Below are positions 966-31,175 of a DNA stretch of 31,175 nucleotides, one piece after another. The stretch is from a virus. Taxonomy: Duplodnaviria > Heunggongvirae > Uroviricota > Caudoviricetes. Every line of letters begins with the position of its first letter. Within the stretch, counting starts at the first letter, position 1. The stretch is from the IMG/VR virus record IMGVR_UViG_2565956711_000006, positions 1 to 31,175 of that record; one strand, 5' to 3'. The position numbers were made by a program, and so were the translations under genes. Below the pieces are notes generated by a model. That model saw only the letters and a program-made list of their open reading frames with translations, had not been told where the DNA came from and made no database searches.

Positions 966-2084
966 TTAAGACGTTGAATCGTCACTCTCCGCTGTCCAGT
1001 CGTCGATTTTTACTTCCAGTTCCAGCGACGTGGTAAACCCTCCCCCGCCAATATCGTGAACGCACCGCGTTATCGTCCAGTTCCCACTGTCGATCGTGGA
1101 CTTAAAGCCGTAGACGCTGGCGGGCTGTTCCGGGTACAAATCTGCGCGGCCACGCGCCAGGGTGATACTGAACGTCGCCGCTCCACGCTGCAACTCCCGC
1201 CACTTAGCCGCAGCGGCACGCTTCGCCGCCTTTTCCGTCTTGAAGGTTTTACGGATAACAAAAACGTTACCTTCGGCCCCGGCCAGATAATCACCCTCTT
1301 TTTTGCTGGATGCAGGCTCTTTCTTTTTGGCCTGGCTGGTTCGTCGCCTGCGGGTGGTTTTCTTCACGGTAGTGGATGGTTTTTTGCCAAAGTTGAGATC
1401 AAGCCAGTATGCAGTTACGCCTGTGTACGCGTCGCGGTCAGCTACGTTAAACCGATGTTTATCACCGCTTGACCGGACGATCTCGATTACCGGCAGCGGC
1501 TTGCCACTCTGCGTCACTCCCTTGCCCGGCGTGATAAACAGAAGCATACCGTTTTTAATGGTTGCCACCGCGCCCAGCATTTCGGCCATGCGCGTTAAGA
1601 AGCTGATATCTGATTCACTCGTCTGATCAGCGTGGTCTATCTCAATCTTCGCCAGTTCTTCGCTGACGCCCGCACGCAGATCGTAGCGGCTGGCAATGCT
1701 GGCGACCACATCCCCCACGGTAATATCGTGCCAGCTATATTCCCTCTTCACGTTGAAGGTATCGCGGAAATCTGCGCTTCTGGCACTGATCGTTAGCTGG
1801 TCAGGCGGGCCAGCGTGTCCGATTTCGTCAACCGTATACACTCCCTTAAAAACCAATGGATCATTATCCCAGCCCAGCGCCACCGATATCTTTGCGCCGC
1901 GTGATGGTAATGCTACCTGCCCGTCAGCATCATCCAGAGTCAGATCCAGCGTGTCCGCTTCAAAGCCCCGGTTATCTGTCAGAGAAAGGGAGATCAGCCG
2001 GTTATCCAGCGCCGTAAGCTGCTTACCCTCAATCTCAATACTGAACGCCGGGCGCGGCGAATATCGGTTTTCTGTCGTGTCCAT
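966..2084 (-). CDS. D: tail protein gpD (late control gene D family)
   Basis: 372-aa ORF; N-terminus MDTTENRYSPRPAFSIEIEGKQLTALDNRL matches remembered P2 gpD/Mu N-type tail proteins; SD GAAGGAG upstream of ATG 2084; D-ogr order as in P2. Confidence 0.88.
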   Translation of the reverse strand: MDTTENRYSPRPAFSIEIEGKQLTALDNRLISLSLTDNRGFEADTLDLTLDDADGQVALPSRGAKISVALGWDNDPLVFKGVYTVDEIGHAGPPDQLTISARSADFRDTFNVKREYSWHDITVGDVVASIASRYDLRAGVSEELAKIEIDHADQTSESDISFLTRMAEMLGAVATIKNGMLLFITPGKGVTQSGKPLPVIEIVRSSGDKHRFNVADRDAYTGVTAYWLDLNFGKKPSTTVKKTTRRRRTSQAKKKEPASSKKEGDYLAGAEGNVFVIRKTFKTEKAAKRAAAAKWRELQRGAATFSITLARGRADLYPEQPASVYGFKSTIDSGNWTITRCVHDIGGGGFTTSLELEVKIDDWTAESDDSTS

Positions 2085-2241: not shown

Positions 2242-3435
2242 ATGGCCACTAACTACCATCACGGTGTAACCGTCACGGAAACCACCGACCTTAGCACGAT
2301 GATCACCGACATTGATTCGGCGGTGATCGGCGTTGTCTGCACCGCTGATGATGCGGACGAAACAGCGTTCCCGCTGGATACCCCTGTACTGATCACCCGC
2401 GTGGCTAACATGCTGGGCAAGGCAGGTAAAACCGGCACCCTGTTTACCACCCTGAAAGCGATTTCAGACCAGACCAGCCCGCAAACCATTGTGATCCGCG
2501 TTGCTGATGCTGCAAATATCGAACCGCCAGAAGGCGGCACCGCACAGACACAGGATCAACTGGTTATTGGCGGCACCGATGCAAACGGACGCTTTACCGG
2601 CATGTACGCGCTGCTGTCTGCCGAAATGCGCGTAGGCGTGCGCCCGCGTGTGCTGGCTGTTCCCGGTCTTGATACGGAAGCGGTGGCCGCACAACTCGGC
2701 GTCATTGCCGAAAAGCTGCGCGCGTTTGCTTACGTGGCAGCGAACGGCTGCAACAGCATCGCCGAAGTGAAGGAATACCGCGAACAGTTCTCCCAGCGTG
2801 AAATGATGGTTATCTGGCCTAATTTCATCTGCTACGACACCAACGCCGGAGCGAATGCCACCGTGCCCGTGGGTGCCCATGCGGTTGGGATGCGCGCCAA
2901 AATCGACGCAACGCAGGGCTGGCATAAAACCATTTCCAACGTGCCCGTTAATAACGTGCTGGGGATGGATCGGGATATCTATTTCACGTTGCAGGGCACC
3001 GATACCGACGCCGACGAACTGAACGCAGCAGGCGTTACCACGCTGATCAAGCAGGACGGCTACCGCATCTGGGGATCGCGTACCTGCGACGCGGAAACGT
3101 ATATCTTCGAAAGCTATACCCGAACCGCGCAGATCGTTGCGGATACCGTCGCCGAAGCACATTTCGCCTATGTTGATAAACCGCTTACCCCGTCGCTGGT
3201 AAAGGACATTGTGGACGGTATCAATAAGAAGCTGACCTCATATGTGACGGCTGGCAAGCTGCTGGGCGCCCGCTGCTGGTATGACCCGGAACCGAATACC
3301 TCGGAAACCCTGCGCAATGGTCAACTGACCATTAAGTACAACTACACCCCTGTTCCACCGCTGGAAAATCTCAGCCTGGTACAGGAGTTCACCGACGAAT
3401 ATTTCGCTACGTTTTCCAGCGCAGTGAATAACTAA
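2242..3435 (+). CDS. FI: contractile tail sheath protein gpFI
   Basis: 397-aa ORF; MATNYHHGVTVTETTDLSTMI... resembles P2 FI; followed by tube and E/E' genes. Confidence 0.92.
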   Translation: MATNYHHGVTVTETTDLSTMITDIDSAVIGVVCTADDADETAFPLDTPVLITRVANMLGKAGKTGTLFTTLKAISDQTSPQTIVIRVADAANIEPPEGGTAQTQDQLVIGGTDANGRFTGMYALLSAEMRVGVRPRVLAVPGLDTEAVAAQLGVIAEKLRAFAYVAANGCNSIAEVKEYREQFSQREMMVIWPNFICYDTNAGANATVPVGAHAVGMRAKIDATQGWHKTISNVPVNNVLGMDRDIYFTLQGTDTDADELNAAGVTTLIKQDGYRIWGSRTCDAETYIFESYTRTAQIVADTVAEAHFAYVDKPLTPSLVKDIVDGINKKLTSYVTAGKLLGARCWYDPEPNTSETLRNGQLTIKYNYTPVPPLENLSLVQEFTDEYFATFSSAVNN

Positions 3436-4438: not shown

Positions 4439-7372
4439 ATGGCAGACCGCAATTTAAATATCAGGGTGGCATTCAGCGCCCTGAATAATATGTCCCGCCC
4501 TGTCAACGCGGCGCGCCAGAGTGCCGCCGCGTTGGCGTCTCAAATCAATCAGACCAAAACCAGCATCAAAGGGCTTGAGCGTCAGGCAACCAGCTTCGAC
4601 CGCCTCACCGCAGCCAATAAAAAAACCACCGAACAACTGGCCCAGGCGAAAGAACAGGCCCGGCAAATGGCGGCGGCTTATGGCCCGTTACGCCAGCGCA
4701 GCGCCGAACAGGTTGCCGCCCTCAATCAGCAACGTGCAGCCATTCGCCAGTTAACCCAGCAGCAGAAAGGTGAGCAGACGCAGCTTAATCAGTTGCGCGC
4801 CAGCTTCTACAGCGAAGGCATTGCGATCCGCAGCGCCAGCCGGGCGACGGAACAGATCAACCAGCGCACTGCGCAATACAATCGCCAGCTTGCCGAACAG
4901 CAGCGACGGCTTGACGCTGTAAACCAGGCGCAGGCCCGTTACAGCCGCGCCAAAGAAACCGGCGAAAAGATGATGAGCGGGGGAATGAAAACCGCCGCAG
5001 TGGGTGCGGCAACCCTCGCACCTGTCGCCGCTGCGGTGAAATCCTACAGCAGTCTTGAAGACGCGATGAAGGGCGTAGCCAAACAGGTAAACGGCTTGCG
5101 TGACGACAGCGGCAACCGCACCCCGCAATATGAAGAAATGCAGCGGGCGATCATGGATGCCAGCGAAAAGCTGCCAATGGCAAACGGTGCTGTTGACTAT
5201 GCCGCCCTGGTCGAAGGCGGCGCACGTATGGGCGTCGCAAACAGCGATGATCCGTGGGAAAAACAAAAAGCCGATCTGCTGTCTTTCGCCAGCATGGCGG
5301 CAAAGGCTTCTGTTGCCTTCGAACTTCCCGCCGACCAGCTTTCTGAAAGTCTCGGTAAGATTGCCGGGCTGTATAAAATCCCAACCCAAAACATTGAACA
5401 GTTAGGCGACGCCATAAACTACCTGGACGATAACGCGAAGTCGAAAGGCTCCGATATTATCGACGTGCTCCAGCGCGTTGGCGGACTTGCCAGCCAACTG
5501 GATTACAAGCAAGCCGCCGCGCTGGGTTCCACCTTTCTGACGCTTGGATCACCTGCCGAAGTTGCCGCCAGCGCAACCAATGCAATGGTGCGCGAACTAT
5601 CGATCGCCACAGTACAAAGCGATAAATTTTTTGGTGCGCTGGATGAAATCGGCGTCAATGCTGAAAAAGTCCAGAAAAGCATGTCAGTGGACGCGATGGG
5701 CACAATCATTTCAGTGCTGGAAGCGTCCAAAAAACTTGCACCAGATAAGCAGGTAGCCAACCTTACTCAAATTTTCGGTAAAGAGTTCGGCGATGATGCG
5801 CAGAAACTTGCGAACAACCTGCCCGAACTACGCCGCCAAATAGAACTGACGCAGGGCGCAGCCGCCAAAGGTTCTATGAATCGGGAATCTGATATCAATA
5901 AAGATTCCCTTTCAGCTCAGTGGCAACTGACCAAAACCGGCGCGGTTAACGCATTGAGTTCAGCAGGGGAAACGCTCCGCGAACCGCTGATGGATATCAT
6001 GCTTACCGTCAGTAAGGTAGTTGGCAGCGTCCGCCGCTGGGTTGAGGCAAATCCGGCTCTGGTTGGCTCAATCATGAAAGTCACCGCAGCCATAGGCGCG
6101 TTGCTGGTTGTCGTGGGTGGCCTGATGCTGACCATCGGCGCAGTGCTCGGCCAGATGGCACTTGTTCGCCTCAGCTTCACCACGTTGGCCGGTGAAGGAG
6201 GAATAGCGCGGCTGACTGGTGGAGTAATGCGCCTGGGTGGTGCATTCCAGTGGCTTGCTGGCTCGCCTATGCAGGCATTGTTAAGCGCCGGTCGCATGGT
6301 ATTCTGCCCGCTTATCACGCTACTGGCTGGCATTTCTGCACCCGTCTGGGGGCTGATTGCTCTCTTTGCTGCGGCAGCAGTGGCCGTCATTAAATTCTGG
6401 GAACCAATACAGGCATTTTTCACTGGTTTCTTTAACGGCATCATGACGGGCTTACAACCTGTATTTGATGCTTTCAACGCTGTTTTCGCTCCATTAGCCC
6501 CAATCTTTGACGCGATAGGCTCCGCTATTAGCGGCGTTTGGGATTGGTTTACAAAATTGCTTGAACCGATCAAATTTTCCAGCGATGCGCTAGAAACTTG
6601 CACTACTGTTGGCGAAACATTTGGGAGGGTTCTGGGTACTGCAATAAGCGGTTTGCTTTGGCCGCTACAAAAACTGATGGAGGGTGTCGGCTGGGTACTG
6701 GAGAAACTTGATCTAATTCCTGCTGGACTTGATGCAGCAAACGCCAAAGCAGAAAGCCTTAAAAAAGATCCCGTTGTCTGGGAGTGGGATCCGCAGCAAA
6801 AGAAAATGGTTAAAAAGGATTGGCACTGGTCGCCGGATAAACCAAACCAACCTAAACCGCCAAAACCACCAATAACTCCGAAGCCAGTTGGCATCCCAGA
6901 CCTTATGGGAGCGCCAAACTTAACGCCGAAGATGAGCAAGAGTCTGGATAAAATCGCAGACAACACGGGAAAAATGGCGGCAAAAGACGGCCCCGGCGAA
7001 ATCGTCTTCAAGAATAAGCAGCCCTATATCCCGATCCGGGGCGGATATTCGGAACCGCTTAAGCAGGCGCAGCGCCAGCTACCATCCCTTACCGATTGGG
7101 TGACGCAGCAGACCGGATCGCTGATCGCTTCCGTTACACCGTGGCAGGTTGAGAAGCCCGCCGCACGGGTTCCCGTTTCGGCGTCGCCCTCTGCGGCTTC
7201 CGTCGCTGCGCTAATGCCTGCGCCGGGTGGCGATGTATATAACCTTAACTTCGACTTTAGCGGCCAGAAACTGGATGAAGAAACCATTATCAGGCGCGTG
7301 CGCGAAGAACTTGCGTTAGCGAAGCAGCAAGCCGACCGGCGCAAGCGTTCCCAACTGACCGATCACGTCTAA
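4439..7372 (+). CDS. T: tail tape measure protein gpT
   Basis: 977-aa ORF, coiled-coil-rich N-terminus, hydrophobic central region, Pro-rich segment; position after E/E'. Confidence 0.9.
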   Translation: MADRNLNIRVAFSALNNMSRPVNAARQSAAALASQINQTKTSIKGLERQATSFDRLTAANKKTTEQLAQAKEQARQMAAAYGPLRQRSAEQVAALNQQRAAIRQLTQQQKGEQTQLNQLRASFYSEGIAIRSASRATEQINQRTAQYNRQLAEQQRRLDAVNQAQARYSRAKETGEKMMSGGMKTAAVGAATLAPVAAAVKSYSSLEDAMKGVAKQVNGLRDDSGNRTPQYEEMQRAIMDASEKLPMANGAVDYAALVEGGARMGVANSDDPWEKQKADLLSFASMAAKASVAFELPADQLSESLGKIAGLYKIPTQNIEQLGDAINYLDDNAKSKGSDIIDVLQRVGGLASQLDYKQAAALGSTFLTLGSPAEVAASATNAMVRELSIATVQSDKFFGALDEIGVNAEKVQKSMSVDAMGTIISVLEASKKLAPDKQVANLTQIFGKEFGDDAQKLANNLPELRRQIELTQGAAAKGSMNRESDINKDSLSAQWQLTKTGAVNALSSAGETLREPLMDIMLTVSKVVGSVRRWVEANPALVGSIMKVTAAIGALLVVVGGLMLTIGAVLGQMALVRLSFTTLAGEGGIARLTGGVMRLGGAFQWLAGSPMQALLSAGRMVFCPLITLLAGISAPVWGLIALFAAAAVAVIKFWEPIQAFFTGFFNGIMTGLQPVFDAFNAVFAPLAPIFDAIGSAISGVWDWFTKLLEPIKFSSDALETCTTVGETFGRVLGTAISGLLWPLQKLMEGVGWVLEKLDLIPAGLDAANAKAESLKKDPVVWEWDPQQKKMVKKDWHWSPDKPNQPKPPKPPITPKPVGIPDLMGAPNLTPKMSKSLDKIADNTGKMAAKDGPGEIVFKNKQPYIPIRGGYSEPLKQAQRQLPSLTDWVTQQTGSLIASVTPWQVEKPAARVPVSASPSAASVAALMPAPGGDVYNLNFDFSGQKLDEETIIRRVREELALAKQQADRRKRSQLTDHV

Positions 7373-27367: not shown

Positions 27368-27580
27368 TTACAGGACTCCGTAAGGGGAAGATGGAACAGC
27401 CGGACGCTGCAACGCCGTGGTAAGGCGCTGGCGCATGTCGTCGATAAAGCAGGAAACAGAGGGATCGTCAGAAGAAAGGGTTAACTCACCATCGCGGCGG
27501 GTTTTAATCGTCAGCCCTTCACGCTCAACAGCAGGTAAGAGAACGTGCAGGATGAAGTTATATTGATCGCGTTTAGTCAT
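27368..27580 (-). CDS. hypothetical protein (70 aa)
   Basis: ORF with SD GAGG 10 nt upstream; stop abuts the dam ATG; no family recognised. Confidence 0.5.
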   Translation of the reverse strand: MTKRDQYNFILHVLLPAVEREGLTIKTRRDGELTLSSDDPSVSCFIDDMRQRLTTALQRPAVPSSPYGVL

Positions 27581-27622: not shown

Positions 27623-27805
27623 TTACTGGTGATCCGCTGATTGGTTAGCTGACTTGAGGGCAGGCCAGACAAGGAGAAGAAGAGCGCCAACGAAGAAGGC
27701 GTCGCCAATCACCGAAAGCAGGTAGCTGGTGAAATCCACTGCTACGACCATGAAGGCCAACAGCAGGGCCAGCGCCGGACGTAGTGAATCCAGCACGCGC
27801 AGCAT
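27623..27805 (-). CDS. small hydrophobic protein with two predicted TM helices (60 aa)
   Basis: MLRVLDSLRPALALLLAFMVVAVDFTSYLLSVIGDAFFVGALLLLVWPAL; ATG overlaps the TerB-like stop (TGATG). Confidence 0.55.
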   Translation of the reverse strand: MLRVLDSLRPALALLLAFMVVAVDFTSYLLSVIGDAFFVGALLLLVWPALKSANQSADHQ

Positions 27806-28239
27806 CAGAGATAATCCTCAACACGCAGCCCCAGACGGCGCCCGACCTCTTCCAGCACCTTCTGTTCTTCTGGTTCGATCTGGCCGTCCGCTTCGGCGAT
27901 AGTCAGCATGTTGACGAAGACTTCTTCGGCTTCTTTCGGATCGTTTTTGATGTCGTCGATTTCGCGCAAAATGTTCATGCGGCCAACGCGGAAGCCAGCT
28001 TCAAGCTGTTCCGTATAGCGGTTGATGGTGGATGTAATTTCATTGCCGAAATGCGCAAGGCGCGGGTTAGAGCGGATAAGCTGATCCAGCTTGCTGGTTT
28101 CTTCTTTTTCGATCTCGCCATCGGCGGCAGATACCAAAAGACAACCGCCGACAATAGCTTCCATAAGATCGCGATTTTCCACTTTCTTAAGTTCAACTTT
28201 TGCCGCTGCTACTTTTTTTCCAAACAGTTTATTAAACAT
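27805..28239 (-). CDS. TerB-like domain protein
   Basis: Start at ATG 28239 (MFNKLFGKK..); two repeats of the TerB-type helical motif (..GGCLLVSAADGEIEKEE.. and ..TIAEADGQIEPEEQKVL..) resembling remembered TerB; the plus-strand antisense ORF 27784..28257 is low-complexity. Confidence 0.65.
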   Translation of the reverse strand: MFNKLFGKKVAAAKVELKKVENRDLMEAIVGGCLLVSAADGEIEKEETSKLDQLIRSNPRLAHFGNEITSTINRYTEQLEAGFRVGRMNILREIDDIKNDPKEAEEVFVNMLTIAEADGQIEPEEQKVLEEVGRRLGLRVEDYL

Positions 28240-28274
28240 GCTATTTATCCTTTTTAGGATGAGTGAAAGCGCCA

Positions 28275-28290
28275 TCACTTAATTAAGTGA
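28275..28290. promoter_or_regulatory. 16-bp perfect palindrome, candidate operator
   Basis: tcacttaattaagtga is its own reverse complement; sits in the AT-rich gap 36-51 bp upstream of the TerB-like start. Confidence 0.4.
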
Positions 28291-28333: not shown

Positions 28334-28564
28334 TTAGCCGATTAAATCTCTCAAAGAATTAACAAGGTTAAAAAGCAATCCTTTGTTTATCTTCTTCGTA
28401 TAAACAAAGGGCTTACTCATTCCCTTAATAAATTGAACCTTGCTAGGCTCAGGTTTAAAGAATTGCCCGTCTGGTGTTTCCAGCCAGCCGCGTGAGTTTT
28501 TGAAGTGTGTAAACTGGCACCCGTGCTTAAGCAGGCTTGCCAGTGATGGGCCTTCATCGTGCAT
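28334..28564 (-). CDS. hypothetical protein (76 aa)
   Basis: ATG 28564 (MHDEGPSLASLLKHG...) with SD AGGGGG 6 nt upstream. Confidence 0.5.
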   Translation of the reverse strand: MHDEGPSLASLLKHGCQFTHFKNSRGWLETPDGQFFKPEPSKVQFIKGMSKPFVYTKKINKGLLFNLVNSLRDLIG

Positions 28565-28805
28565 TACTGCCCCCTTGCTTATACATCTGATCAACCGTGC
28601 GCATGGCTTCCGCTAAAGCAAAGTCACGCCCGTAATAATCGCCATTGCTGGAAATACGATAAGAGTGCTTAAACGTAAATGGATTACGCGGGCATTTCTG
28701 AATAGTGAAGCCACGATATAAATATGAATGACGACTTAACTGTATTAATTGCACAGCCACAAAAGCCCCCTCACATTCCCAATTTAAGCAATTCACCATC
28801 AACAT
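28554..28805 (-). CDS. hypothetical protein (83 aa), weakly supported
   Basis: Fills the gap between the flanking small genes but has no SD before either candidate ATG (28805/28799). Confidence 0.3.
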   Translation of the reverse strand: MLMVNCLNWECEGAFVAVQLIQLSRHSYLYRGFTIQKCPRNPFTFKHSYRISSNGDYYGRDFALAEAMRTVDQMYKQGGSNAR

Positions 28806-28984: not shown

Positions 28985-29266
28985 TCAAAGACCGATCCAC
29001 AGCAACCAAGCGTCGCGCTGCTCTCTCGGACGGTTGTAGTAGGCGTCACGCATTGCGCGGTTGAACTCAGGAATATAGATCCAGTTCTCAGCACGGGCGC
29101 CCAGGCTGTCCGGGTTCTTCCACGGGATGATCGGCAACTTACCGTCTTCAATCATGCTCTTAACCGTGGCGGGCTTCTTACCGATTAACTCGGCAAATTT
29201 AGGGTATGGAACCGCGTCAACGGCATGACGCACTTCAATGAACCCCTCTAACTCTTTGTCTGTCAT
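28985..29266 (-). CDS. cox: Cox/Apl-type excisionase and early-promoter regulator
   Basis: Start at ATG 29266 (MTDKELEGF..) with SD GAGAGGTGA; ..VPYPKFAELIGKKPATVKSMIEDGKLPII..RDAWLLWIGL resembles remembered P2 Cox. Confidence 0.72.
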   Translation of the reverse strand: MTDKELEGFIEVRHAVDAVPYPKFAELIGKKPATVKSMIEDGKLPIIPWKNPDSLGARAENWIYIPEFNRAMRDAYYNRPREQRDAWLLWIGL

Positions 29267-29362
29267 AGCGTTATCACCTCTCATTGAAGATATGCCGGGA
29301 TTTTTAGCCACGCCCGGCGCGTGGTATTCTGGAGTTTCCACACAACCAGAAAGGAGATCTTT

Positions 29363-29599
29363 ATGTCTCAGAAAGAAGTACCTATCTACATTCCTGCTGA
29401 ACTTGAATACCTCGTTGCTAATGACCTGGCTTGCTTACGCTTCCACTACCACTTAGCTACACCGACAAAACTGCCCGAAGCAGGCGAGTTGTTTACTGGT
29501 TTAACCATTGAGCAAGCAAAAGACACCGTAACCTTCCTCCAGCAATACATTGCTAAAGCTGAACTTGCTTCTTCACTGGCCCCGAAACGGAGCCACTAG
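29363..29599 (+). CDS. hypothetical protein (78 aa) between cox and C, on the C/int strand
   Basis: ATG 29363 with strong SD AAGGAG 6 nt upstream; MSQKEVPIYIPAELEYLVANDLACLRFHYHL...; no family recognised. Confidence 0.55.
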   Translation: MSQKEVPIYIPAELEYLVANDLACLRFHYHLATPTKLPEAGELFTGLTIEQAKDTVTFLQQYIAKAELASSLAPKRSH

Positions 29600-29804
29600 T
29601 TTTAACCGTCCCTGCATAACGTCCATTCCGGAAATAACTACGGCGGAATTCAGCAACATGGATTCCGTCACTTCTGTTGCCCCGCTCAAGTCTTCCACTC
29701 ATTTGTGCTAATCTCCGCATTAGCGCTAGGCGCTTATTTCGGCTTGTAACTGCTTATATTGGCGGTTGCTCATGGTAGAGATTACCACCCTTAAGGAGAA
29801 TGTT

Positions 29805-30125
29805 ATGGTAGAGATCCCTACCCCGTCAAGCGGCGTGGGTGAAAAAATCAGAGCTATCAGGGATGCGGAGGGGTTAACAAGGCAGCAATTCTTTGAATTA
29901 ACTGGAATACCTGCTGGCACGCAGAAGTATTACGAGACAGGAAGAGTGGAGAGTATTGGTAGCGATATCTTGCTTAAGATCACTCAGCATTCACGTTTCG
30001 CAAAATACACGCTCTGGCTTATGACTGATAAGACCGCCCCTCAAGCTGGTCAAATCGCACCGGCCCTCGCACACATTGGGCCAGAGTCAACTGGATCAGA
30101 CCGCTCCGAGAAACAAACTGGTTAA
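29805..30125 (+). CDS. C: immunity repressor, P2 C family
   Basis: ATG 29805 with SD AAGGAGA; C-terminal ..FAKYTLWLMTDKTAPQAGQIAPALAHIGPE..KQTG matches remembered P2 C (..FTKYTLWFMTNQIAPESGQIAPALAHFG..KTG). Confidence 0.75.
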   Translation: MVEIPTPSSGVGEKIRAIRDAEGLTRQQFFELTGIPAGTQKYYETGRVESIGSDILLKITQHSRFAKYTLWLMTDKTAPQAGQIAPALAHIGPESTGSDRSEKQTG

Positions 30126-30194: not shown

Positions 30195-31175
30195 ATGTCG
30201 ATTAAGAAGCTCGAAGGTGGTCAATATGAAGTGGACGTATGGCCGCGCGGACGTAACGGAAAACGTATCCGCAGGCGATTTGAGAAGAAACAAGAGGCAG
30301 TTCTTTTTGAGCGTTATGTATTAGCCAACGCCGACAAAAAAGAATGGCTGGGCGCGAGCGTTGACCGCCGCACCTTAAGCGAGTTGTTAGATACCTGGTG
30401 GCTGCTATATGGACAGACTCAGGAAAATGGCGAGATTGAAAAGCGGCACCTGAATAAAACAATCAGGGCGCTTGGTGATCCAGCCGTTAACCGACTGAAC
30501 AAGCGAATGATTGCACAGCACCGAAGCCAACGGCTGGAAGACGGTATCAGCGCAGCAACGATCAACCGGGATATTTACCGTTTGTCCGGGATGTTCAGCA
30601 CGTTGATAAAGCTGGAAGAGTTCAGAAAGGAAAACCCCTGTAAGGGTCTGGAACCACTGAAAGAAGCGCCGCCAGCTATGACTTATCTCGCCAAATCAGA
30701 GATCAGCAAATTGCTGGATACTCTGACCGGCGACGATCGACGTGTAGCACTGCTATGCCTCAGCACTGGCGCACGCTGGGGTGAAGGGAGCACGCTGCGA
30801 GGTGAGCAGGTTAATCACGGGCGTGTGACGTTCCTTAAGACCAAAAATGGGAAAAAGCGCACGGTGCCGATATCGGAAGAACTGGAGAAAGAGATCAAGA
30901 CCAGCGACACCGGGCCACTGTTCAAAGTTGACTATGAAAACTTCTGCGAACGGCTCAGGCTGGTTAAGCCTGACTTACCACGCGGGCAGGCCACGCATGT
31001 GCTTAGACATACGTTCGCAAGCTGGTTCATGATGAACGGGGGGAACATTATTGCGTTACAGCAAATTCTGGGGCACGCCAGCATACAACAGACGATGGTT
31101 TACGCTCACCTTGCACCTGATTACCTGCAACACGCAGTAACGTTAAACCCTCTTGGCGGCGGGCTGATGGTGTGA
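30195..31175 (+). CDS. int: tyrosine integrase, P2 Int family
   Basis: 326 aa; MSIKKLEGGQYEVDVWPRGRNGKRIRRRF.. and C-terminal ..HVLRHTFASWFMMNGGNIIALQQILGHASIQQTMVYAHLAPDYL with the R..H-X-X-R..Y catalytic pattern; SD GGAGGG; stop is the last codon of the window. Confidence 0.92.
   Translation: MSIKKLEGGQYEVDVWPRGRNGKRIRRRFEKKQEAVLFERYVLANADKKEWLGASVDRRTLSELLDTWWLLYGQTQENGEIEKRHLNKTIRALGDPAVNRLNKRMIAQHRSQRLEDGISAATINRDIYRLSGMFSTLIKLEEFRKENPCKGLEPLKEAPPAMTYLAKSEISKLLDTLTGDDRRVALLCLSTGARWGEGSTLRGEQVNHGRVTFLKTKNGKKRTVPISEELEKEIKTSDTGPLFKVDYENFCERLRLVKPDLPRGQATHVLRHTFASWFMMNGGNIIALQQILGHASIQQTMVYAHLAPDYLQHAVTLNPLGGGLMV

Follow-up and report, generated by a model that had tools for sequence, protein, structure and literature searches.

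In a 31,175-nt stretch of Caudoviricetes DNA (IMG/VR record IMGVR_UViG_2565956711_000006; hereafter the window, meaning the whole stretch), a P2-type immunity region lies at the window's end. Such regions are usually seen as minimal two-gene switches, but here additional DNA separates the cox gene from the gene for the C immunity repressor. We read this DNA as a portable accessory cassette (a moron) that is inserted downstream of the early promoter Pe and oriented against the early operon. The 78-aa open reading frame (ORF) that it carries, ORF78, would be expressed in the lysogen and silenced by an antisense RNA made during early transcription; from the sequence comparisons below, we put the probability of this reading at about 0.6. 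The cassette has four parts: a control element of ~70 nt, ORF78, a terminator-like hairpin, and a short basic early-strand ORF that overlaps the end of ORF78. Units of this kind, in which a counter-oriented prophage gene is under sas-type antisense control, are already known.

An insertion between the early promoter and cox

The features of the region that define the insertion are as follows.

28985–29266, minus strand: cox, 93 aa (Pfam Phage_Cox, 2.9e-23; phrog_272, 1.2e-38)
29363–29599, plus strand: ORF78, 78 aa, with the Shine-Dalgarno (SD) sequence AAAGGAGA at 29350–29357, 6–7 nt before the ATG
29669–29722, minus strand: degenerate copy of the 5' end and SD region of cox, from alignment to phage phiT5282H; it marks the right-hand insertion junction
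29723–29830, no strand assigned: intact immunity switch, near-identical to the phiT5282H spacer, from a promoter scan and a repeat search
29829–29824 and 29805–29800, minus strand: Pe-like sigma-70 site from the promoter scan, TTGACG and TAACAT with an 18-bp spacer
29772–29790 and 29805–29823: two 19-nt direct repeats, 33 bp apart, from the repeat search; candidate C half-sites
29805–30125, plus strand: C immunity repressor gene, 106 aa (phrog_147, 3.6e-37)

The start codon of cox reads CAT at 29264–29266 on the plus strand, C is preceded by the SD sequence AAGGAGA at 29793–29799, and the integrase gene begins at 30195, after C. The gap between cox and C thus covers 29267–29804, or 538 bp, and the wide separation that a preliminary description of this DNA had given as 540 bp was borne out. 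The same description had placed ORF78 on the C/int strand with a strong SD sequence, 96 bp from the start of cox, and all of these coordinates proved correct.

To locate the extra DNA, we compared the window with Enterobacter phage phiT5282H, the closest phage, which is 98% identical to the window on both flanks and has cox and repressor genes of the same lengths. In phiT5282H, the spacer between C and cox is 100 bp long and contains no ORF. The alignment matched leftwards from the cox ATG and rightwards from about 29723, so that ~80 bp adjoining C are conserved in both and the extra DNA spans about 29267–29722, downstream of Pe. At the right-hand junction, next to the degenerate cox copy, an ATG at 29702–29700 occupies the position of the cox ATG of phiT5282H. 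The cox gene is thereby displaced from the switch and lies 436 nt farther from the early promoter than in phiT5282H.

The switch itself was not widened. Its operators, Pe-like promoter, and Pc region, which must fall in 29723–29795, all lie within about 100 bp beside C, as in phiT5282H. Because a compact switch still abuts C and phiT5282H has a 100-bp spacer, the extra ~430 bp represent a cassette inserted downstream of Pe. The direct repeats reproduce the operator arrangement of phage W-phi, in which the Pe spacer contains one C half-site and the second follows downstream at a distance of about three helical turns (PMC1904263). As is characteristic of a P2-type switch, the region combines a C repressor and Cox with operator half-sites that are directly repeated at a Pe facing C. 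By contrast, cox is not the first gene after Pe at about 100 bp from C; it starts 538 bp from C, and a 49-codon ORF and the antisense of ORF78 intervene between Pe and cox.

ORF78 is a genuine, conserved protein-coding gene under selection. Its family comprises 17 clusters in the protein database, all named 'hypothetical' and restricted to Enterobacterales (58–95% identity, 76–87 aa), and the ratio of non-synonymous to synonymous substitution rates (dN/dS) over the first 66 codons is 0.04–0.1, indicating strong purifying selection. The family is rare: a profile search of 1.8 billion representative proteins returned only 13 matches, the E. coli version is present in 2 of 5,426 complete genomes, and tblastn found no homologue in 50,697 deposited phage genomes. 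Since phiT5282H, at 98% identity, also lacks the gene, the expectation that ORF78 is not standard for the P2 family was confirmed. The gene is not unique to the window either, and recurs in a minority of P2-like prophages.

All ORF78 loci examined belong to the early regions of P2-like prophages, and the gene always shares its strand with the repressor and integrase genes and converges on early genes, but the junctions differ. In Rahnella, Enterobacter, Erwinia, and Yokenella, it lies between the switch and cox, as in the window; in Salmonella and Morganella, it follows cox and one more gene; and in E. coli, it follows two early genes and precedes DUF4761. Similarity between these contexts extends from about 29292 through ORF78 to a block just past its stop codon. 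Judging from the way in which ORF78, the upstream element, and the small minus-strand ORF travel together across three different junctions, the cassette is a recurrent mobile unit rather than a one-off acquisition. Absence from phiT5282H and the three junctions elsewhere provide the variable presence among close relatives and the clean junctions that define a moron. As to a promoter and terminator of its own, the scan for terminators called the hairpin, and a conserved extended −10 was read from the sequence that the promoter scan did not call. Foreign base composition was rejected as a mark of the cassette, as its GC fraction is 0.48 against 0.54 for the window, yet the adjoining early genes are also at 0.475.

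Accessory genes of P2-like phages have been described at two positions, between A and Q and between G and FI (PMC3573123). Similar to the cassette, these are nonessential genes with their own signals and a patchy distribution among close relatives; the cassette matches neither position, as it sits within the early operon, either between Pe and cox or beyond the first early genes. The cI–apl/cox spacers of 18 surveyed 186-type phages measure 88–125 nt, and those of newly identified C-type prophages are too variable in size and sequence to align (PMC3448106). Because the cassette lies outside both described sites (PMC3573123) and the surveyed 186-type spacers measure only 88–125 nt (PMC3448106), the spot that it occupies inside the early operon, beside the switch, is new, as is the cargo family that ORF78 represents.

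The insertion point is also occupied in Salmonella phages SEN4 and SEN5, but by a different insert, about 880 bp long. In SEN5 (1868–2751 of the stretch read), it contains the pseudoknot element that also lies upstream of ORF78, with a compensatory CCATG/CATGG stem, and a 60-aa cargo ORF, SEN5_34; the start of the 158-aa first early gene, SEN5_33, resembles the N-terminus of Cox. In Erwinia tracheiphila, codon 16 of the ORF78 homologue (3001–3243 of the locus) is an in-frame stop, which probably makes it a pseudogene; the element and the small minus-strand ORF are kept. The Trabulsiella guamensis locus has two copies of the pseudoknot element, at about 1456 and about 2963, one before the ORF78 homologue and the other before different small plus-strand ORFs; no cox was seen to the left, and these may be tandem cassettes in a rearranged prophage.

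The control element and its relation to P22 sas

Upstream of ORF78, a conserved control element of ~70 nt occupies 29292–29362. It contains the palindrome CCACGC-N5-GCGTGG at 29308–29324 (CCACGC at 29308–29313, CCGGC at 29314–29318, GCGTGG at 29319–29324), which the preliminary description had noted in the gap between cox and ORF78. The palindrome is located where it had been reported, but it is not specific to this gap: it forms one stem of a widely shared element, is found in P22 within the sas RNA, and is kept with compensatory changes in dozens of other prophages. With one mismatch allowed, the motif CCAYG-N7-CRTGG-NTAAA, derived from the palindrome, occurs once in the window, against 0.04 expected.

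A blastn search with 29285–29365 matched unrelated temperate phages. The matches that were followed up fell in unannotated DNA or, in SEN5, under one small hypothetical ORF, and lay beside counter-oriented small ORFs. Copies of the element were located as follows.

SopE-phi: upstream of a 91-aa ORF between fil and cII
Cronobacter phage phiES15: upstream of a YmfI-family ORF
Rac-SA53: upstream of rac10
HK225: upstream of gp66, between Q and the holin gene
SEN5: upstream of SEN5_34
E. coli K-12 prophage e14: upstream of ymfI

We then scanned IMG/VR for the exact pattern of the proximal half of the element and found it in at least 120 contigs, where the cargo behind it comprises at least 17 unrelated small-protein families of 40–124 aa, ORF78 among them. 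The distal half, with the palindrome, precedes sieB in P22, a P22-like phage, and K-12 Rac. Both ymfI of e14 and rac10 of Rac-SA53 share the full ~70-nt element with ORF78, including the −10 region, leader hairpin, and SD spacing, and both overlap a convergent early gene (ymfJ and rac11), as ORF78 does with the candidate small ORF; by contrast, their cargo is unrelated to ORF78, and they belong to lambdoid early-left operons rather than P2-like ones. Rfam gave nothing at gathering level across the window, only a chance-level psbNH match in 29200–29850 (E 3.9), and no family for the sas region of P22.

A 2026 RNA-seq study gives the sequence of sas, a 127-nt antisense RNA of P22 (PMC13397905 Table 2). 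The RNA has also been listed as a 105-nt cis-antisense RNA that switches sieB translation and is needed for proper SieB exclusion (PMC12197685). Nucleotides 80–110 of sas, CCACCGAGCCUGACGUGGUUAAAAGACAGGC, correspond to the reverse complement of the element (29294–29324 of the window), and both stems are kept. This homology is limited to the 3' part of sas and does not extend to the 5' two-thirds. In record AF527608, sas extends from just inside sieB, across the annotated PsieB, to the element. P22 sas was seen as a discrete RNA by RNA-seq (PMC13397905), whereas its counterpart in the window is predicted from sequence. The placement is of the sas type, in that the element lies directly upstream of counter-oriented ORF78, on the early-operon strand, with Pe to the right.

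Comparison of the two systems revealed further likenesses and differences. In the sieB-esc-sas system of P22, also found in lambda and Rac, as in the window, a prophage accessory gene runs counter to the early operon and overlaps a convergent early gene (in the window, the candidate small ORF) at its 3' end, and the sequences upstream of sieB and ORF78 are homologous (GCC.G(G)-T-rich-CCAC(G)-C.GGC-..GTGG). The cargo differs, being the 192-aa SieB in one case and an unrelated soluble protein of 78 aa in the other, as does the host phage, lambdoid or P2-like. Between the element and the start codon, ORF78 has a single CTGG..CCAG hairpin and sieB has two CCCCTACAG repeats; the predicted promoter of ORF78 overlaps the element, whereas that of P22 lies downstream of it. 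The 5' part of sas pairs with the sieB leader and the 3' part is structural; a leader-complement hairpin followed by a pseudoknot, as predicted for ORF78, would parallel this organization.

On the early (minus) strand, the element is predicted to adopt the following structure.

29294–29324, minus strand: sas-like element with predicted H-type pseudoknot topology, CCACG-C-GCCGGG-CGUGG-CUAAAAAU-CCCGGC
29324–29320, minus strand: 5' arm S1, CCACG
29319, minus strand: loop L1, C
29318–29313, minus strand: 5' arm S2, GCCGGG
29312–29308, minus strand: 3' arm S1', CGUGG
29307–29300, minus strand: loop L3, CUAAAAAU
29299–29294, minus strand: 3' arm S2', CCCGGC

The inverted repeats are interleaved, in the order S1-L1-S2-L2-S1'-L3-S2'. 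Among 52 unique variants, collected without reference to the stems, 50 retained at least four S1 pairs together with at least five S2 pairs, as did 5% of shuffled sequences. Across variants, L1 has 0–3 nt, L2 has 0–2 nt, and L3 has 6–10 nt and is A-rich. The S1 stem occurs as CCAC/GUGG, CCAU/AUGG, CCACG/CGUGG, and CCACC/GGUGG, and the S2 stem as GCCGGG/CCCGGC, GCCUG/CAGGC, GCCUU/AAGGC, GCCCGG/CCGGGC, CGCCC/GGGCG, and CCGAU/AUCGG. An alignment made with MAFFT misregistered the inner S2 pairs, and pairs were counted instead on extracted arms, a procedure that is biased towards the proposed structure; counted in this way, 90% of cells pair, against 69% in shuffles and 23–41% with the 3' partners slid, and the covariation score is 0.487, against 0.128 in shuffles and 0.017–0.094 with the 3' partners slid. 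Both stems covary. We also considered a pseudoknot on the plus strand and rejected it: the loop crossing S1 would there be just 0–3 nt, indicating that the topology fits the early strand only. An intrinsic terminator at the palindrome was likewise rejected, as no U-tract follows it on either strand.

The same DNA contains predicted signals for ORF78 expression.

29303–29330, plus strand: predicted sigma-70 promoter of ORF78, with −35-like TTTAGC at 29303–29308, a 16-bp spacer, extended −10 TG at 29322–29323, and −10 TATTCT at 29325–29330
29349–29329, minus strand: hairpin CUGG-N13-CCAG, present in the minimum free energy (MFE) fold of the minus strand

The predicted transcript would start near 29337 and have a leader of about 25 nt ahead of the strong SD sequence. 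The arrangement TT.ACC/TT.GCC-N16-TGGTAT(A/G/T)CT (TGGTATACT or TGGTATGCT) precedes all of the cargo genes listed, and the leader hairpin (CTGGWRTTYYCACACARCCAG) is nearly invariant over the contigs and cargo families of the IMG/VR scan (at least 120 and at least 17, respectively). The complement of the predicted ORF78 leader lies in the 5' arm and loop of this hairpin, and the loop matches the predicted 5' end of the ORF78 mRNA in complementarity. Two other assignments were discarded: a LexA box, because the match reads CTG-N15-CAG instead of CTG-N10-CAG, and a minus-strand sigma-54 promoter, because the GG/GC spacing is wrong.

Since the repeats sit exactly between the predicted −35 and −10, they might instead be overlapping protein operators in the ORF78 promoter, where a repressor dimer would bind over the −35/−10 spacer and the half-sites would co-evolve; symmetric changes in both arms are also expected of diverging palindromic operators. 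We regard this explanation as unlikely. The same stems, with different sequences, are found in P2-like, lambdoid, and P22-like phages with unrelated repressors, and the P22 copy of the element is located upstream of the annotated PsieB, within an RNA that has been detected. In addition, three variants keep pairing solely through G-U on the minus strand, and two interleaved palindromes joined by a fixed, A-rich linker of 6–10 nt would be atypical of an operator. An RNA pseudoknot at the 3' end of an antisense transcript is the interpretation that we prefer.

Further small structures accompany the element at some loci. The more distant ORF78 homologues (loci L012 and L017, and E. tracheiphila) and SEN5_34 have an extra hairpin of about 40 nt in the leader, such as CGCCCG..CGGGCG or GTTATGCCGC..GCGGCATAAC, where the short CTGG..CCAG hairpin would otherwise be, indicating that the leader module itself is exchangeable. 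Sub-threshold Rfam matches to DicF and STnc100 were found on the early strand downstream of the element in Rac-SA53 (1168–1401, minus strand) and e14 (5193–5414, minus strand), about 100 nt and about 10 nt from the element, respectively. The lambdoid early transcript would then bear several structured small RNAs in a row.

The ORF78 protein

The ORF78 protein is mildly acidic (isoelectric point (pI) 5.8) and contains no hydrophobic segment. Its AlphaFold2 model (predicted local distance difference test (pLDDT) score 73.6) has a β-hairpin at residues 11–29 and a long helix at residues 49–72. A Foldseek search with this model against PDB and BFVD returned nothing at E ≤ 0.001, a sequence profile search of PDB returned nothing below E 0.2, and PHROGs, NCBIfam, and PADLOC gave nothing meaningful for ORF78 or the small minus-strand ORF. 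Profile and structure searches, which the preliminary description had proposed, therefore yielded no function.

The only recurring signal was a sub-threshold resemblance to BssS (also called YceP), a biofilm regulator of E. coli. The Pfam BssS profile (PF13991) matched ORF78 with 14.9 bits (E 0.03) over 57 of its 72 positions, short of the gathering cutoff of 27 bits. It also gave sub-threshold matches to 7 of 18 family members (best E 0.0039); a distant relative, P0028, scored 18.4 bits (E 0.0025), still under 27 bits. Profile–profile comparison of the ORF78 family with BssS by hhalign gave E 0.0014 with a probability of 17.7% (range 13–18%) over 58 aligned columns. The two proteins are of similar length (84 aa for BssS and 78 aa for ORF78) and share collinear motifs (LRFHY in ORF78 and LRLHY in BssS; LT.EQAKD and LTTDVARQ), and a C-terminal His ends both families. 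A low-confidence model of BssS (pLDDT 60) predicts strands and one long helix at positions aligned with those of ORF78. On the other hand, bssS is a core chromosomal gene, whereas ORF78 is rare and prophage-borne. From these profile and model comparisons, the chances that ORF78 and BssS are homologous appear about even. Because BssS has no known mechanism, homology alone would not settle the function of ORF78. Of the possible roles, we favor either modulation of host physiology in the manner of BssS or exclusion by a factor that would harm the phage's own lytic growth.

The latter role is the basis of a rival proposal, namely that ORF78 is a superinfection-exclusion or abortive-infection factor, a SieB analogue acting against other phages or P4-type satellites, and that the antisense RNA prevents self-exclusion during lytic growth. 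The proposal is about what the protein does and does not conflict with the cassette architecture. The distal half of the element is common to sieB of P22, the P22-like phage, and K-12 Rac; ORF78 occupies the same slot as sieB, counter-oriented inside an early operon; and it is restricted to P2-like prophages. Other accessory genes of P2 (old, tin, and fun) are defence genes, which also speaks for exclusion. By contrast, ORF78 has no similarity to SieB in sequence or fold, no membrane segment, and no PADLOC match. An Esc-like product would require an internal start, but ORF78 contains neither ATG nor GTG in frame after its first codon; its sole internal start-type codon, a TTG at codon 43, is without a good SD sequence, so the SieB/Esc translational switch of the sas type is absent here. 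Furthermore, an element that drives 17 unrelated small proteins does not indicate what its cargo does. On balance, we consider an exclusion function rather doubtful.

The preliminary description had expected ORF78 to be expressed in the lysogen and had named it a candidate accessory regulator or exclusion factor. A lysogen-expressed gene with such a role is plausible because the distal half of the element precedes sieB, which is expressed from the prophage, in P22, the P22-like phage, and Rac. ORF78 lies upstream of Pc and downstream of Pe, outside the C/int operon. As it is upstream of Pc and antisense to the early transcript, ORF78 needs a promoter of its own.

Proposed expression and silencing of ORF78

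In the mechanism that we propose, C shuts off Pe in the lysogen, and ORF78 would be made from its own extended −10 promoter inside the element. Upon induction or infection, Pe would fire and early transcription would traverse the cassette antisense to ORF78. The stretch of this transcript from about 29370 to about 29290, consisting of the leader complement, the hairpin, and the 3' pseudoknot, might persist as a stable RNA and, by analogy with sas and sieB, block translation of ORF78. The cassette would then be a unit for expression in lysogeny only. In addition, 436 nt of mostly untranslated DNA with a convergent promoter between Pe and cox should lower Cox output and favor stable lysogeny.

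On the far side of ORF78, the cassette contains two more features.

29642–29669, plus strand: terminator-like hairpin from the terminator scan, followed by the tail ACTTCTGTTG
29702–29553, minus strand: candidate small basic early ORF, 49 aa, pI 11.3, which overlaps the last 47 nt of ORF78 and is the first ORF after Pe

Ten homologous loci were read for these features. A hairpin with the conserved 5' arm GGCGGAA and a matching, variable 3' arm was present in seven; one more has a hairpin with a different 5' arm, and one has no evident hairpin. A clear T-run follows the hairpin in E. coli and in E. tracheiphila, the latter with the different 5' arm. The small ORF begins upstream of the hairpin, and nine of the ten loci have an open frame with FRRxYFxNGxYAGxVK or a variant thereof; the tenth, in Morganella, has a 61-aa ORF with partial resemblance only. 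Between the window and E. coli, the small ORF shows five synonymous and four non-synonymous changes over 17 codons. Its motif decays in more distant loci, a search of the protein database found near-identical relatives only, and the Prokaryotic Genome Annotation Pipeline does not call the gene, although some pipelines do. Based on these sequence data, the odds that it is an early gene are about even. We also considered that ORF78 and the small ORF might form a convergent, overlapping toxin–antitoxin pair, and rejected this because neither gave family hits and the small ORF is conserved over only about 16 residues.

Alternatively, the ORF78 promoter might mainly be a remnant or a promoter of the establishment type that points to C and int, as pE does in phage 186. 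Transcripts passing the weak hairpin would then boost C/int, Pe would suffer interference from convergent transcription, and the protein would be of secondary importance. In 186, the CII-dependent promoter pE lies downstream of the lytic promoter and fires back towards the repressor and integrase genes. The ORF78 promoter has the same position downstream of Pe and the same direction, and the tail of the hairpin in the window, ACTTCTGTTG, is a poor T-tract. However, purifying selection acts strongly on the ORF78 protein, a clear T-run marks the terminator of the E. coli and E. tracheiphila versions, and the element also occurs in late operons, as in HK225, without a repressor gene downstream. 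In contrast to 186, the window has no CII homologue that could serve as activator, encodes a conserved protein, and has a terminator-like hairpin before the switch. We consider an establishment-type promoter improbable and retain the model of a cassette with a protein-coding cargo.

Several points weigh against this model. The promoter and terminator of ORF78 and its antisense RNA are all predictions, and a simple scan for promoters made no call at the ORF78 site. The annotated PsieB of P22 is situated not within the element but between it and sieB, which means that sieB-type and ORF78-type elements do not share a conserved promoter part. Covariation is inflated in two ways, because the arms used for pair counts were extracted by their fit to the structure and because the sequences share ancestry. 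Wobble pairs show no clear strand preference, as three variants fit the minus strand and two the plus strand, and the MFE z-scores of the element, −1.3 and −2.0, are unremarkable. As to the protein, no function emerged from matches in PADLOC, NCBIfam, PHROGs, PDB, or BFVD, and the BssS relationship is under every threshold (14.9 versus 27 bits, hhalign probability 18%, BssS model pLDDT 60).

A P2-type switch can thus host an accessory cassette between Pe and cox, which should alter Cox dosage and, in turn, lysogen stability and excision. ORF78 represents a conserved family of small proteins tied to P2-like prophages, with a testable connection to BssS. The element joins at least 17 unrelated small prophage genes, including ymfI of K-12, to the well-studied sieB/sas system of P22, and the 3' pseudoknot provides a concrete structural hypothesis for the stabilization of such antisense RNAs. 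If this reading is correct, the element can also serve as a sequence tag for lysogen-expressed accessory genes in prophages.

More tentatively, the ~70-nt element could be a general, horizontally mobile 'lysogeny-only switch', with a promoter and leader on one strand and a pseudoknot-protected cis-antisense RNA on the other, that serves many small lysogen-only proteins in at least three lineages (P2-like, lambdoid, and P22-like). ORF78 would then be a BssS-like cargo that tunes host physiology or the stability of P2-type lysogeny, and P22 sas a single member of a large RNA family that has yet to be described and is missing from Rfam. In the literature searched, we found no description of the element's breadth, its presence in P2-like phages, or the pseudoknot reading.

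Three further observations concern the early operon. An 11-nt inverted repeat (29705–29715 and 29778–29788; 91% complementary, with 62 nt between the arms) would let the Pe leader RNA fold back so that the SD sequence of the first early ORF (ATG at 29702) pairs with bases close behind the transcript start, and translational control of the first early gene could result. Three E. coli P2-like prophages with an ORF78 homologue also have a gene for a 76-aa 'Derepression' protein (PF25738) in the early operon, which we presume to be related to the P4 epsilon antirepressor. Finally, the early operon of the window contains a TerB-domain gene (157 aa; Pfam TerB, 3e-14) at 27805–28278 on the minus strand, between a 70-aa gene (27368–27580) and fil (28334–28594). 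It is co-oriented with the operon and is the second extra gene relative to phiT5282H, which has an 86-bp gap at this position.

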